Assembly: GCA_003056145.1 (NCBI GenBank)
Contig: LSNL01000002.1
Span: 36,369-100,368, forward strand
Length of the DNA stretch: 64,000 nt
Reading direction: 5' to 3'
Source of the DNA: Parcubacteria group bacterium M10-OD1-1
GTDB lineage: Bacteria > Patescibacteriota > Minisyncoccia > Moranbacterales > UBA2206
Shown here: piece after piece, positions 4,532 through 8,256 of the stretch
Layout of the letters: every line of letters begins with the position of its first letter
How positions within the stretch are numbered: position 1 is the first letter of the stretch
Notes under the pieces: generated by a model
The model's input: the letters and a program-made list of their open reading frames with translations, nothing else
Told to the model about the DNA's origin: nothing
Databases searched by the model: none
Made by a program: the position numbers and the translations under genes

Positions 4532-5038
4532 TTGCTAGAAAAAAATAATGTGAATAAAATAGCAAAGAAAAATATATATTTTGTATTAATATTTATTGCG
4601 ACAGTTTTTTTATTTTCAGGTTGTGATAGTGATATAGGAAATGTTCAGCCAGCAACAAATATTCAAAAAACAACTCAAGTTCAGGGGGTAGCGACAGAAA
4701 ATAAAAAAGATATTCAACCAGTTGCAAATATTAATGAAAAAAATCAAGTACAACAAGAAAAGATAGTAAATAATAATGACAATGTTAAGTTAGAAAAACA
4801 AAAGAGTCTAAAATTAAAAGAGAAGAAAACCTATAAGACAAAAGAAAGAGCAGTTTCAGCTGTTAAACCAAAAACTTGTGGAGATGATTATTATGTGAAT
4901 GTTAGTGGCAATTGTGTTCATCGTCCAAGTAGTAATCCTTCAGGAGCTTCAGCTAAATGTAGAGATGGATCGTATAGTTATAGTCAACATAGAAGAGGAA
5001 CTTGTTCCGGTCATGGAGGTGTAGCTCAATGGCTTTAA
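4532..5038 (+). CDS. Predicted lipoprotein with Cys/Gly-rich C-terminal domain (DUF3761-like)
   Basis: Signal peptide ending in the lipobox LFSGC. C-terminus is CGDDYYVNVSGNCVHRP...CRDGSYSYSQHRRGTCSGHGGVAQWL. The start codon is uncertain: TTG at 4532, or GTG at 4550. Confidence 0.45.
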   Translation: MLEKNNVNKIAKKNIYFVLIFIATVFLFSGCDSDIGNVQPATNIQKTTQVQGVATENKKDIQPVANINEKNQVQQEKIVNNNDNVKLEKQKSLKLKEKKTYKTKERAVSAVKPKTCGDDYYVNVSGNCVHRPSSNPSGASAKCRDGSYSYSQHRRGTCSGHGGVAQWL

Positions 5039-5414
5039 GCTATTATCTACAGAATTTCCTCCCAAGGCGGATAAAAACTCTGGTGGACTTGTCTGCGAGG
5101 TGGTCAACATATGTTGTAATAGACAGACTATTGACATAATAACCTAGCATAAATTAGGGTATTATAATCCTTTAAATCACATAGAATTTGAAGAATAGCT
5201 TAGCTGATAATTAAAAAAGTAATAAAATGTTGATAAAAAGAACAATACAGGATTATGTCGAGGATTATGATGGGGGACTGCACACCTATGAAATTAAGTG
5301 GAATAGTAAGAAAAAAGTAGTTACACCAAAAAAATGGAAAGATAATTATCCAATCGGATGATTTGAGACTGGGCTTGTTAAAAATGATTATGATATGCTA
5401 GACTTTAAATAGGT

Positions 5415-6233
5415 ATGAATATTGAATATAGTAAAATTTATAACATTCTGCAAATAAAAGACAACATTTTGGTATTTGATTTTCAAAATGTTGGTTTTTT
5501 GAATACTTTTGAAATCGTTGAATTGTTTTCTCTGGCGGTTTCCAGTTTATTTAGTGGAGATAAATACAAGATAATCAATGAAACTAAAGCAAGCAGTCAT
5601 TTAAAAAGAATTAATTTTTTTCCTGTTTTTGAAAAAATGAGAAATATTCCAGCATATGAAGAGGCTAGTTTCTCAACTGGTAACAGTAATAGACTTATAG
5701 AATTGCATAATTATGAACATAAAGAACAATTTTATGGTGATTATGATAAAATTTTTATAATGCTTAAAAATATTGGATTAACAGATGAAACTACTTCTTT
5801 AGTTGCTTCTTCACTGGGTGAAGTAGTGGATAATGCTTTTTTGCATAATCTTGGAATGTGGCCATTGAATATAAGTGGTAGATCAATATTGTTGGCACAG
5901 AATTTTCCACAGAAAAAAGAGTTGTGTTTTTCTTATTGTGATTTCGGTGTTGGCTTTCGAGCTACATTGCTAGAAAATTATCCTGAATTAAAAAATAATT
6001 TTGAAGCTATAAAATTGGCTATGGAAGAAAATGTAACATCACGATTTCCACGAAGAGGCGGAAACGGCTTGAATTATTTACAAAAAAATATTTTCAACGG
6101 ATTTAAAGGTGAATTATTGGTGCGTTCAGGCGAAGCATTGGTTAATGTGCGTAGTCAAGGAGATGTTGAATTAGTTGATAACAATGTGCAAGTTGGTTTT
6201 GGTTCAAACATATTTTTCTCATTAAAATATTAA
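5415..6233 (+). CDS. GHKL-superfamily ATPase-like protein (HATPase_c-like; SpoIIAB/anti-sigma-kinase-like core) with unknown N-terminal region
   Basis: N-box-like EVVDNAFLHN, G1-like DFGVGF and G2-like GGNGL motifs in the C-terminal 150 aa. Confidence 0.45.
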   Translation: MNIEYSKIYNILQIKDNILVFDFQNVGFLNTFEIVELFSLAVSSLFSGDKYKIINETKASSHLKRINFFPVFEKMRNIPAYEEASFSTGNSNRLIELHNYEHKEQFYGDYDKIFIMLKNIGLTDETTSLVASSLGEVVDNAFLHNLGMWPLNISGRSILLAQNFPQKKELCFSYCDFGVGFRATLLENYPELKNNFEAIKLAMEENVTSRFPRRGGNGLNYLQKNIFNGFKGELLVRSGEALVNVRSQGDVELVDNNVQVGFGSNIFFSLKY

Positions 6234-6237
6234 AATT

Positions 6238-6540
6238 ATGAAAACAATTGAAATGAAAAAATTTGGAAAATACTTAGCTGGTCGTGAAGCCGGCAAGCAT
6301 GCCTATGATTTTTTTATAAAAGAAATCGAAAAGATGCCGAAAGATGAAAAAATATTTTGCAATTTTCAGGATGTTTTGCTTTTAGCACCGTCTTATTGTG
6401 ATGAACTTTTTGGTGAAATTCAAGAAAATTTGCCAGATAAGCTTGTAATTGATAAGAATATTGGCAATGCTTTGAAAAAAGCTTTTGATACTGTAGCAGA
6501 GGTGAGGGATTTAGAATTTATGTATGGTGAAAGTGAATAA
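6238..6540 (+). CDS. Small STAS-like (SpoIIAA/DUF4325-like) protein
   Basis: 100 aa, starts 4 nt after the GHKL gene stop. Size and alternating hydrophobic pattern fit STAS-like anti-anti-sigma-type domains. Confidence 0.35.
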   Translation: MKTIEMKKFGKYLAGREAGKHAYDFFIKEIEKMPKDEKIFCNFQDVLLLAPSYCDELFGEIQENLPDKLVIDKNIGNALKKAFDTVAEVRDLEFMYGESE

Positions 6541-6687
6541 TCCATTTTTTGCAATCAATTTTTTTTGAGTGCAGGTTTTAGTTGTGATAAAATTTATTTA
6601 ACTCAAAAGTTGGAAATTGCTGTGGACAAAACTAGAAAAAGAATTATTATTAAAGACTGGGAGGAGTAAGTGAATAAAAGTAATTAA

Positions 6688-8256
6688 ATGTCAGATAGTA
6701 TAAAGAAGAGAAGAGTATTATCATCAAAAACTCAAACAATTATTTTGGCTGTGGTTTTGTCAATTATTTCTATAAGTGCTTTTGTTTATTATTACCAAAA
6801 TGGGCTGAGCCTGGCTTTCAGCGATTCAATGTCGCATCTCAATATTGCCCGGCGCGTCGTTGATAGTCTCACTCCCGGTTTTGCGCAAATAGGAAGCATT
6901 TGGCTGCCATTGCCTCACCTCCTAATGCTTGCCACTGTATGGAATAACTTCATGTGGCATTCCGGACTTTCTGGATCGTTAATCAGTATGATTTCCTATG
7001 TCGTCACCGGAGTTTTGATTTTCAAACTGCTCAAAGAGCTTAGGGTTAATGCGTTAGGAAGAATTGCCGGTGTGGCAATTTTTGCTTTGAACCCGAACAT
7101 TCTCTATCTTCAGTCAACTGCCATGACTGAACTTTTGCTTTTGGCAACAATGATGGCTGGCGCATACTATTTTTTTCTATGGCTAGAAAAAAGTGATGAC
7201 CTGCTTCTTATAAAATCCGCCTTTTGGATTATGCTTTCCACTCTTGTGCGCTATGACGGTTGGTTTCTTCTTTTGTTTGAATCTATATTTCTTCTTTTGC
7301 TCATATGGAAAGAAAAAGGATGGAAAAAAGCAGAGGGTAATTTTTTGGCATTTTGTTTTTTGGGCGGGTTTGGTATTTTTTTGTGGGTGGTGTGGAACTG
7401 GGCGATTTTTGGAGATCCGCTTTATTTCGCATTTGGACCATTTTCCGCACACACCCAACAAGAAAATTTTTCCGTCAATGGACTACTCCTTACTCAGTAT
7501 AATATGTTTTTATCAACAAAAATATATACTATCGCAGTTGAATTTTGCACGGGCTTGCCTATGCTCATCTTGACATCTGTGGGAGTATTGTGGGTATATC
7601 TGAATAAAAATATTGTCGGTAAGATAAAACTGGCATTATTGCTTTTTACCATACCATTCTTCTTTAATATAATTGCTCTCTATTTTGGTCATTCAATTTT
7701 ATTTATGCCTCATATTTTGGGTTCGGGCTGGTTTAATGTTCGCTACGGCGTAATGTGTATTCCGATGATCGCCATATTTGTAGCTCTGCTGATGAATTTT
7801 AAAAATAAAGTTTTTCAAGTTATCCTATCTATTTTTATTATCGTGGCTATCATATTTCCTTTTTCATATGAGCCAGTGACCCTGCAGGATGCGAAAGAAG
7901 GAATGGCTCGCAAAGATCTTCGGGCTGCTGGACACTGGTTGGCTGGCAATGCCACTAATCCGAATGAAGAAATTCTTATTTCGTCTGCCGCTAATGATCC
8001 GATCGTTTTTCTTTCTGGCTTTCCAATAAAGAGATTTATCTATGAAGGCTCGGGGAAATATTGGATTGAGTCAATGAAAAACCCTGCTGAATATGCGACA
8101 TGGGTATTTGTTGATAAGAAAAATTCAATGGATTCTGTTGCAACGAAATTATGGAAGACTGGAATTTTGCAGAAAAAATTTAATTTGGTCCATGAAGATG
8201 AATGGTTTTTGTATTATAAAATTAAGAGTAGTCCGGATAAAAAAATAGGAAATTAA
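6688..8256 (+). CDS. Polytopic membrane glycosyltransferase, GT-C fold (ArnT/PMT-like), paralog B
   Basis: The block HLNIARRVVDSLTPGFAQIGSIWLPLPHLLMLATVWNNFMWHSGLSGS and the C-terminal AEYATWVF motif are shared with the 509..2065 protein. Confidence 0.5.
   Translation: MSDSIKKRRVLSSKTQTIILAVVLSIISISAFVYYYQNGLSLAFSDSMSHLNIARRVVDSLTPGFAQIGSIWLPLPHLLMLATVWNNFMWHSGLSGSLISMISYVVTGVLIFKLLKELRVNALGRIAGVAIFALNPNILYLQSTAMTELLLLATMMAGAYYFFLWLEKSDDLLLIKSAFWIMLSTLVRYDGWFLLLFESIFLLLLIWKEKGWKKAEGNFLAFCFLGGFGIFLWVVWNWAIFGDPLYFAFGPFSAHTQQENFSVNGLLLTQYNMFLSTKIYTIAVEFCTGLPMLILTSVGVLWVYLNKNIVGKIKLALLLFTIPFFFNIIALYFGHSILFMPHILGSGWFNVRYGVMCIPMIAIFVALLMNFKNKVFQVILSIFIIVAIIFPFSYEPVTLQDAKEGMARKDLRAAGHWLAGNATNPNEEILISSAANDPIVFLSGFPIKRFIYEGSGKYWIESMKNPAEYATWVFVDKKNSMDSVATKLWKTGILQKKFNLVHEDEWFLYYKIKSSPDKKIGN

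Follow-up and report, generated by a model that had tools for sequence, protein, structure and literature searches.

A STAS-GHKL protein and its small partner

In this work we describe a two-gene cassette from Parcubacteria group bacterium M10-OD1-1, which lies in a stretch of 64,000 nucleotides (nt) of contig LSNL01000002.1 that we call the window. Both genes are on the forward strand. Gene A (5415-6233) runs from an ATG start to a TAA stop and encodes a STAS-GHKL protein of 272 amino acids (aa), a predicted VapK-like serine kinase. Gene B (6238-6540) also begins with ATG, and its 100-aa product is a STAS-like DUF4325 protein resembling VapS, the predicted substrate or partner of A. The two open reading frames (ORFs) are separated by just 4 nt (AATT), exactly as the initial annotation of this DNA had them.

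Pairs of this kind, the CapK/VapK kinases and their CapS/VapS partners, entered the literature no earlier than 2026, where they were presented as a sensor of DNA damage with either a repressor domain or a PIN toxin as its output. CapK, which consists of a helix-turn-helix (HTH), a STAS and a GHKL domain, responds to single-stranded DNA (ssDNA) as its activator and phosphorylates the repressor CapS, a STAS domain with a winged helix-turn-helix (wHTH), on a conserved serine (Chambers et al., EMBO J 2026, PMC13373217). VapK, a STAS-GHKL protein, is proposed to phosphorylate the antitoxin VapS, a small STAS domain with a C-terminal helix, and so to release the PIN toxin VapC; VapKSC gives about 2 logs of protection against one phage (PMC13373217). 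Activation by ssDNA goes through a conserved aromatic residue between the STAS and GHKL domains, W68 in CapK and F54 in VapK, and structures have been deposited for VapS-VapC (9Z7O) and CapS (9Z71-9Z73) (PMC13373217). A VapC clade coupled to DUF4325 genes had been noted in an earlier survey (PMC5499597).

The AlphaFold2 model of A (mean predicted local distance difference test score 83.8, predicted template modelling score 0.88) has two domains. Structure comparison of this model assigns a STAS fold to residues 10-76 or thereabouts (5442-5642), in the order beta-beta-alpha-beta-alpha-alpha and with its beta-strands beginning at residue 12, and a GHKL (Bergerat-fold) domain of the SpoIIAB/RsbW type to approximately residues 98-272 (5706-6230). 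The best structural matches of A are anti-sigma kinases, the top ones including 1l0o and 1th8, while the best matches of the STAS domains are anti-anti-sigma factors. The initial annotation had placed an uncharacterised N-terminal region of 120 aa before the GHKL part; a region does precede it, but on the model it is a STAS domain.

The three GHKL signatures that had been read from the sequence of A are all present, namely the N-box E136-H144 (EVVDNAFLH, 5820-5846), with the SpoIIAB-type spacing E-x3-N-A-x2-H, the G1 box D176-G180 (DFGVG, 5940-5954) and the G2 box G215-L219 (GGNGL, 6057-6071). The close family of A is small, 18 clusters among 5.8 billion proteins, and within it E136, D139, N140, H144, D176, G178, G180 and G215-L219 are invariant. 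Among 148 representatives of the wider superfamily most of these residues are still near-universal: E136 (143/144), N140 (144/144), H144 (143/143), D176 (140/141), G216 (134/139) and G218 (136/140). Two of them vary, D139 (D in 38 and N in 70 of 144) and G215 (G in 32 and R in 81 of 139). As the motifs are conserved throughout the 18-member family, and mostly across the superfamily, they are not chance matches. On the predicted model, then, A is a STAS fold followed by a SpoIIAB/RsbW-type GHKL domain with all of its ATP/Mg-binding motifs intact.

General-purpose family models say little about A. Neither Pfam nor NCBIfam gives a match even at E<=1, and PDB sequence and profile searches with A, with the A family and with its N-terminal domain return nothing. 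One phage protein family does match, phrog_3364 (‘unknown function’), at E 1.5e-21 over residues 15-250, which spans both domains. Position 28 of A is a phenylalanine, and an aromatic residue occupies this position in 61 of 68 superfamily members. Lined up by eye, Phe28 stands opposite W47 of a VapK-type kinase from the phage contig L033 (see below), and on this sequence comparison it may correspond to the aromatic residue through which ssDNA activates CapK (W68) and VapK (F54).

The partner B had been likened to STAS/DUF4325-like domains. Its match to the DUF4325 model, PF14213, is below threshold for the window copy itself (17.3 bits, E 0.004, against a gathering threshold of 23 bits), yet all seven of its orthologues match PF14213 at E<=0.1, the best at 3.2e-9, and three B partners carry precomputed PF14213 matches. 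Judged by these profile matches, DUF4325 membership of B holds at the family level. The Pfam STAS model does not detect B. In an alignment of 15 partners, drawn from metagenome-assembled genomes (MAGs) of the candidate phyla radiation (CPR), three phages (Streptococcus, Gordonia and Marinitoga) and a Pseudomonas plasmid, Ser52 is the only invariant residue besides the start methionine, which makes its codon (TCT at 6391-6393, checked in the sequence) that of a candidate phospho-acceptor.

A profile built from this alignment and searched against 177,635 PDB sequences finds a sole significant chain, 9Z7O_A, ‘Escherichia VapS’, at E 4e-7; the window B on its own has no match in the PDB, and VapS is found only with the broadened profile. 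Chain 9Z7O_A has 134 residues and native VapS 116, from which we infer an 18-residue tag that sets the VapS numbering in the alignment. Past the aligned core B has 28 residues left and VapS 46, and the close-family B partners are all 98-109 aa long. B is thus shorter than VapS beyond the STAS core and would lack an equivalent of the helix (residues 94-116) that plugs VapC. No HTH was matched in B either, all 100 aa being accounted for by the STAS-like core. Taken at the level of sequence profiles, B is a homologue of the antitoxin VapS, reduced to a minimal STAS-like (DUF4325) protein in which one serine is invariant.

The pair as a travelling unit and its setting in the window

The initial annotation had proposed looking for the pair as a unit in other genomes, and it is indeed co-conserved, in unrelated neighbourhoods. 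A B-like ORF lies directly downstream of A in 12 of the 12 loci with room for one, as well as in loci L017 and L019-L021. The gaps between the two genes are 3-11 nt, and over nine loci A and B change in step in their identity to the window copies (r = 0.94). Inheritance and divergence of A and B are therefore joint, the two forming a single unit with tight spacing. The hosts include Melainabacteria (Caenarcanales), Saccharibacteria, Gracilibacteria, Peribacteria and a gammaproteobacterial MAG.

The neighbourhoods of the pair share nothing between loci. Next to it are found a HflX-like GTPase and dihydroorotate dehydrogenase (L003), IF3 and L20 (L017), RecQ (L018), RuvA and fumarase (L020), an island with Zeta toxin, AbiEii, DUF3800, GIY-YIG and nSTAND3 (L006), two SLFN_AlbA_2 genes and a DUF1016/YhcG nuclease (L019), or a DDE transposase (L021). 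A sigma factor, a PP2C phosphatase or a PIN gene is adjacent to the pair in none of the roughly 20 loci, in agreement with the earlier remark that no sigma factor adjoins it in the window. Within about 5-8 kb neither a sigma factor nor a PP2C phosphatase is found in the window or the related loci, apart from a sigma-70 gene at a distance of 7.6 kb in L003-L005. In L006 and L019, the two closest relatives, B is followed by genes that bear no relation to one another and have left no remnant in the window; with downstream genes unrelated even between the closest relatives, we reject a conserved third component.

In two loci, of Saccharibacteria and Peribacteria MAGs, an A-like frame is fragmentary beside an intact B (59 aa at L014 5177-5356 and 46 aa at L016 3934-4074). 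The Gracilibacteria locus L015 (8001-8725) yields no A-like ORF when translated with code 11, perhaps an effect of the UGA=Gly code of these bacteria. The fragmentary or missing frames of these three loci could be frameshifts, pseudogenes or recoding.

In the window, the pair is flanked by intergenic spacers of 376 nt upstream (5039-5414) and 147 nt downstream (6541-6687). The initial annotation had seen the pair as isolated by long AT-rich gaps: the gaps are real, but they are not unusually AT-rich, with a GC content of 0.322 and 0.265, respectively, against a window mean of 0.302. The pair itself has a GC content of 0.29-0.31, and as both pair and spacers are near the window value there is no compositional sign of recent transfer. 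We accordingly rejected a compositional island around the pair, its composition being ordinary for the genome. A 44-codon ORF in the upstream spacer (5227-5361) was considered as a third component and also rejected; the spacer is not conserved in L006 and L019, the closest relatives, hence the ORF is probably no real gene.

A consensus scan places a promoter-like site (TTGAGA, 17 nt spacer, GATTAT) at 5363-5391 on the forward strand, about 24 nt 5′ of the start codon of A. This is weak evidence, as the region holds 17 such sites against 12.9 +/- 4.3 in shuffled sequence, i.e. not above background. The window and L019 also have in common an element, TGCTA(G/T)ACT, which in the window lies 5′ of A at 5396-5404. 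No terminator-like site was found between 4400 and 6900.

The surroundings were said to be glycosylation genes, and this description stands, with a GT2 glycosyltransferase upstream and a PMT_2-like membrane protein downstream. Also upstream are a methyltransferase, a LAB_N protein and a DUF3761 protein. The last of these (4532-5038, 168 aa) has a predicted membrane anchor and then a long linker of low complexity, with many Q, K and N residues, before its clear C-terminal DUF3761 domain (E 1e-21). Two membrane proteins (473-2065 and 6688-8256), paralogues about 525 aa in length, each with weak PMT_2 (dolichyl-phosphate-mannose transferase-like) matches, bracket the region that contains the cassette and the four upstream genes just named. 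With these paralogues on both sides, the cassette sits within a duplicated glycosylation locus. The whole 64-kb window has neither tRNA genes nor Rfam families at gathering threshold, its GC content is 30%, and from 14 kb onward nearly all of its large ORFs are on the forward strand.

Relatives in phages, plasmids and fusion proteins

An exhaustive profile search returned 1580 representatives of the superfamily at E<=1e-3, and the full STAS-GHKL architecture is present in 82 of the best 166 proteins scored. The phage and plasmid examples that follow consist of a kinase and then a small DUF4325 partner, with no PIN gene. The kinase-STAS (K-S) pair of Streptococcus prophages separates the lysis genes from paratox in some cases, and a CI/ImmA-type regulator pair from the integrase in others. 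In the Marinitoga phage MPV1 it lies between the CI repressor and a serine integrase, and the partner is annotated as a ‘putative anti-sigma factor’. In a published Francisella prophage, a protein of 293 aa comes just before a DUF4325 protein of 112 aa, again between CI repressor and integrase. In the Gordonia phage Phishy the pair has the tail genes on one side and the integrase and immunity repressor on the other. The partner of its gp32, a STAS-GHKL ‘histidine kinase’, is gp33 (L023 4817-5044), which has just 75 aa and no Pfam match, and keeps the conserved serine in an ISFADE motif; gp33 is a minimal version of the STAS partner. On the conjugative Pseudomonas plasmid pBYT1-1 (L025 1365-4073) the pair adjoins genes for a Dam methylase, an 8-oxoguanine glycosylase and a 7-cyano-7-deazaguanine synthase, neighbours that point to DNA modification or defence.

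One phage contig, L033, holds an operon of the vapKSC type, with a kinase of 290 aa, a STAS partner of 125 aa (DUF4325, 53.6 bits) and a third protein of 188 aa whose PIN match (E 4e-4, 21.3 bits) is just under the Pfam cut-off of 23.6. The family phrog_3364 takes in this VapK-type kinase (7e-34) and the prophage kinases (1e-102 and 2e-39) as well as A; the partners fall in phrog_9989. A hidden Markov model (HMM) of the A family scores the two-gene phage and plasmid kinases at 29-51 bits, the MPV1 kinase over its full length, against 23.5 bits for the VapK-type kinase, over the GHKL half only. That the two-gene kinases outscore the VapK-type kinase argues for a separate, stable lineage.

The same parts also occur naturally in a single chain. 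Fusions of the A architecture with DUF4325, such as P0096 and P0171, form a family of at least 190 clusters with a length of about 400 aa, whose members (among P0096 and P0171-P0290) are named only ‘DUF4325 domain-containing protein’ and fall in phrog_5816. Fused K-S genes are found beside PsyrT and ankyrin PDC-M72A genes (L026 7567-8769), between ParB and an integrase (L027 10001-11239), on a Nostoc conjugative plasmid (L034 1914-3158) and, closing an operon, together with genes for a DpdE/DrmD-like SNF2 helicase, a DrmMI-like methylase and a LmuB-like ATPase (L029 10001-11236).

The whole of this last operon (L029 1-11236), possibly a composite defence system not described before, encodes the SNF2 helicase, a protein of 175 aa, the DrmMI/type IIG-like methylase (1504 aa), the LmuB-like ATPase (672 aa), a protein of 284 aa and the fused K-S protein. 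Genes for SRAP, an HTH protein and an RHS toxin come after it. Elsewhere in the superfamily the same GHKL domain is joined to other domains instead of STAS, a MerR-type HTH in P0050 (248 aa) and a cytidylyltransferase domain in P0065 (320 aa).

The fusions are also of importance for the annotation of defence systems. The PADLOC model PDLC02567 (‘DrmA’, 1750 positions) contains the whole K-S architecture in its first 400 or so positions; it matches P0096 at E 1e-95 and P0257 at 9e-101, and free STAS partners match at positions 312-393. Because the model starts with this architecture, PADLOC would report stand-alone K-S fusions as DrmA, and DISARM might in this way be called falsely. A helicase-fused K-S protein was found neither among the 120 listed members of the fusion family nor in plasmids. 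For A itself we rejected DrmA of DISARM, since A matches only positions 141-248 of PDLC02567, has no helicase domain and has no Drm genes nearby. The preprint on YprA helicases does not mention STAS or GHKL.

Interpretation and comparison with known systems

The unit lands in unrelated neighbourhoods of distant lineages, and the wider superfamily sits in prophage lysogeny modules, plasmids and defence islands. Together with the homology to VapK and VapS, this bears out the earlier suggestion of a defence or accessory module. The window pair belongs to the same superfamily as VapK/VapS and, by analogy, most probably works by the same kinase-substrate logic. More specifically we favour, with moderate confidence, the reading that A and B are a self-contained kinase-substrate module of the CapK/VapK-CapS/VapS superfamily, a stand-alone VapK/VapS-like pair. 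Every feature that defines the effectors of VapKSC and CapKS is absent from it: VapC, the C-terminal helix of VapS, the HTH of the kinase, the wHTH of the partner and the downstream immune operon. An accessory role in conflict or stress response, e.g. phage defence, superinfection exclusion or an addiction-like module, is in our view more likely than housekeeping regulation.

How might such a module work? By analogy with CapKS and VapKSC and with SpoIIAA and SpoIIAB, the GHKL domain of A would be the docking site of B. Once activated by a cue of stress or infection, which is ssDNA for CapK and VapK, A would phosphorylate B on or beside Ser52, and this in turn would switch what B, or the A-B complex, binds. 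With no wHTH or toxin-plugging helix in B and no conserved third gene, the output would have to be either a target encoded elsewhere, acting in trans, or the kinase itself.

Several observations weigh against a stand-alone VapK/VapS-like module. In the HMM alignment the characterised phospho-acceptor of VapS, Ser48 (FASPFF), stands opposite Pro51 of B, and Pro49 of VapS opposite Ser52 (LAPSYC), a one-residue offset in the serine register at the start of the second helix, with the VapS numbering dependent on the tag deduced above. The window A has a histidine at position 62 (5598-5600) that is a tyrosine in 70 of 72 superfamily members and in all but at most one of the other 17 members of the close family. 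The Pfam HATPase models, including HATPase_c_2, miss A, whose assignment as a kinase comes from structure prediction and motifs, and it is by analogy that A is proposed to phosphorylate B. Neither A nor B has a recognisable effector domain. A scan of IMG/VR with patterns of the close family gave no loci. Finally, about half of the sampled close-family neighbourhoods (L003, L017, L018, L020 and the window) are plain housekeeping, so that an association with defence appears strongest in the wider superfamily.

The lack of an effector may be read in other ways. One is that the kinase is itself the effector of a toxin-antitoxin pair: A would arrest growth, as a promiscuous Ser/Thr kinase or as a SpoIIAB-like binder of host proteins, and B would be a pseudosubstrate or antitoxin that holds it inactive, with no third gene needed. 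On an infection cue A would escape its STAS partner, or be released by phosphorylating it, and would then phosphorylate or sequester host or phage proteins. SpoIIAB, whose structures 1l0o and 1th8 are among the top matches of A, is a kinase and a protein-binding inhibitor at once. The catalytic residues of A are strongly conserved, toxin-antitoxin pairs typically form a tight and co-diverging two-gene operon, even the closest relatives have no third gene in common, the L006 and L019 islands are rich in toxin-antitoxin genes, and stable fusions of both parts exist. However, a large gene followed by a small one, and a permanent fusion of toxin and antitoxin, are atypical of type II systems, and in the characterised relatives the kinase is a sensor, not an effector (PMC13373217). 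We regard this explanation as tentative, well short of an even chance, and hold it similarly doubtful that the bare K-S pair in general is a complete, portable immune or addiction module with the GHKL kinase as its effector. If it were true, it would amount to a defence system built on a GHKL kinase, in which nuclease, pore and NADase are all absent. Prophages of Streptococcus, Gordonia, Marinitoga and Francisella would carry it, as would the ultra-small bacteria of the CPR, and larger systems would have taken it over as their fused regulatory head.

That A and B are instead a housekeeping partner switch, RsbW/RsbV-like and in control of a sigma factor or other host regulator encoded elsewhere, strikes us as improbable. 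The structural matches to anti-sigma kinases and anti-anti-sigma factors would fit, several contexts of the pair are housekeeping, and in L003-L005 a gene of the sigma-70 family is 7.6 kb away. But the closest characterised sequence relatives are VapS and the VapK-type kinase, not RsbV and RsbW, and what makes a housekeeping switch less likely is the very sparse distribution of the close family, scattered over unrelated phyla with no conserved synteny, and the absence of an adjacent sigma factor or PP2C phosphatase. Still less credible, and in our view very unlikely, is a functionless remnant of a vapKSC or capKS locus that has lost its effector. The pair does lack VapC, the VapS C-terminal helix and any wHTH, and the fragmentary A-like ORFs beside intact B in L014 and L016 would fit decay. 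Conservation speaks against it: intact full-length pairs persist in many lineages, 40-75% identical, their catalytic motifs are invariant and the two genes co-diverge; moreover, the same shape with no effector recurs independently in several phages and plasmids, and the A-family HMM ranks two-gene phage kinases above the VapK-type kinase.

The stand-alone VapK/VapS-like module that we favour adds to what has been published. We found no earlier description of the pair in the literature on DUF4325/PF14213 or on STAS with HATPase or defence, and bare pairs and fusions are not discussed in PMC13373217. The locus and its relatives give at least two architectures beyond those of that work, the bare two-gene pair and the single-chain fusion (at least 190 clusters), spread over prophage lysogeny modules, plasmids, defence islands and the genome-reduced CPR and Melainabacteria. 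Databases label these only as ‘unknown function’, ‘ATP-binding protein’ or ‘DUF4325’; our results provide an annotation for phrog_3364, phrog_9989 and phrog_5816, and flag the PADLOC ‘DrmA’ model as partly representing the K-S module. If the bare pair is functional alone, what is the target of a sensor kinase and STAS substrate with no effector attached? The Streptococcus and Gordonia prophages offer tractable test cases.

Among the known systems, VapKSC shares the general plan of the pair. VapK is a STAS-GHKL protein without HTH, the same architecture as A, and A and the vapKSC-type kinase of L033 both belong to phrog_3364. In VapS, likewise a small protein of the DUF4325/STAS type, one Ser/Thr (S48) is absolutely conserved, as Ser52 is invariant in B, offset in register by one residue. 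In both cases the kinase gene comes first and the partner follows at tight spacing, and both are associated with defence islands and mobile elements. Unlike VapKSC, the window and the approximately 20 related loci have no PIN/VapC gene, B (100 aa against 116 aa) lacks the region of the VapC-inhibiting helix (residues 94-116), and the A-family HMM reaches the VapK-type kinase only in its GHKL half, at 23.5 bits. With CapK/CapS the pair has in common a STAS-GHKL kinase and STAS substrate, a conserved serine on the second helix, a SpoIIAB/SpoIIAA-like geometry and the character of a modular ‘sensor’ pair. CapK, however, has an extra N-terminal HTH, whereas A opens directly with STAS and has no Pfam HTH; CapS is a DNA-binding repressor with a C-terminal wHTH, whereas B is a bare STAS domain; and capKS lies upstream of an immune operon, whereas here the downstream genes vary and are mostly not immune-related, being glycosyltransferase-like in the window.

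The classical partner switches SpoIIAB-SpoIIAA and RsbW-RsbV are alike in the E-x3-N-A-x2-H N-box, the DxGxG and GxGL motifs and the small STAS partner encoded beside the kinase. They differ in that the A-B operon includes no sigma factor or PP2C phosphatase and that A carries a STAS domain of its own in cis. The HMM search that the initial annotation had proposed gave DUF4325 for the orthologues of B, but the Pfam HATPase models (HATPase_c_2 included) and the STAS model miss both A and B, and the distribution of the pair is sporadic and horizontally scattered. The K-S fusions of phrog_5816, lastly, have STAS, GHKL and DUF4325 in the same order as A followed by B, in one polypeptide rather than two, and with a sequence similarity to the window A that is weak (E 1.7e-4 with the DrmA model).

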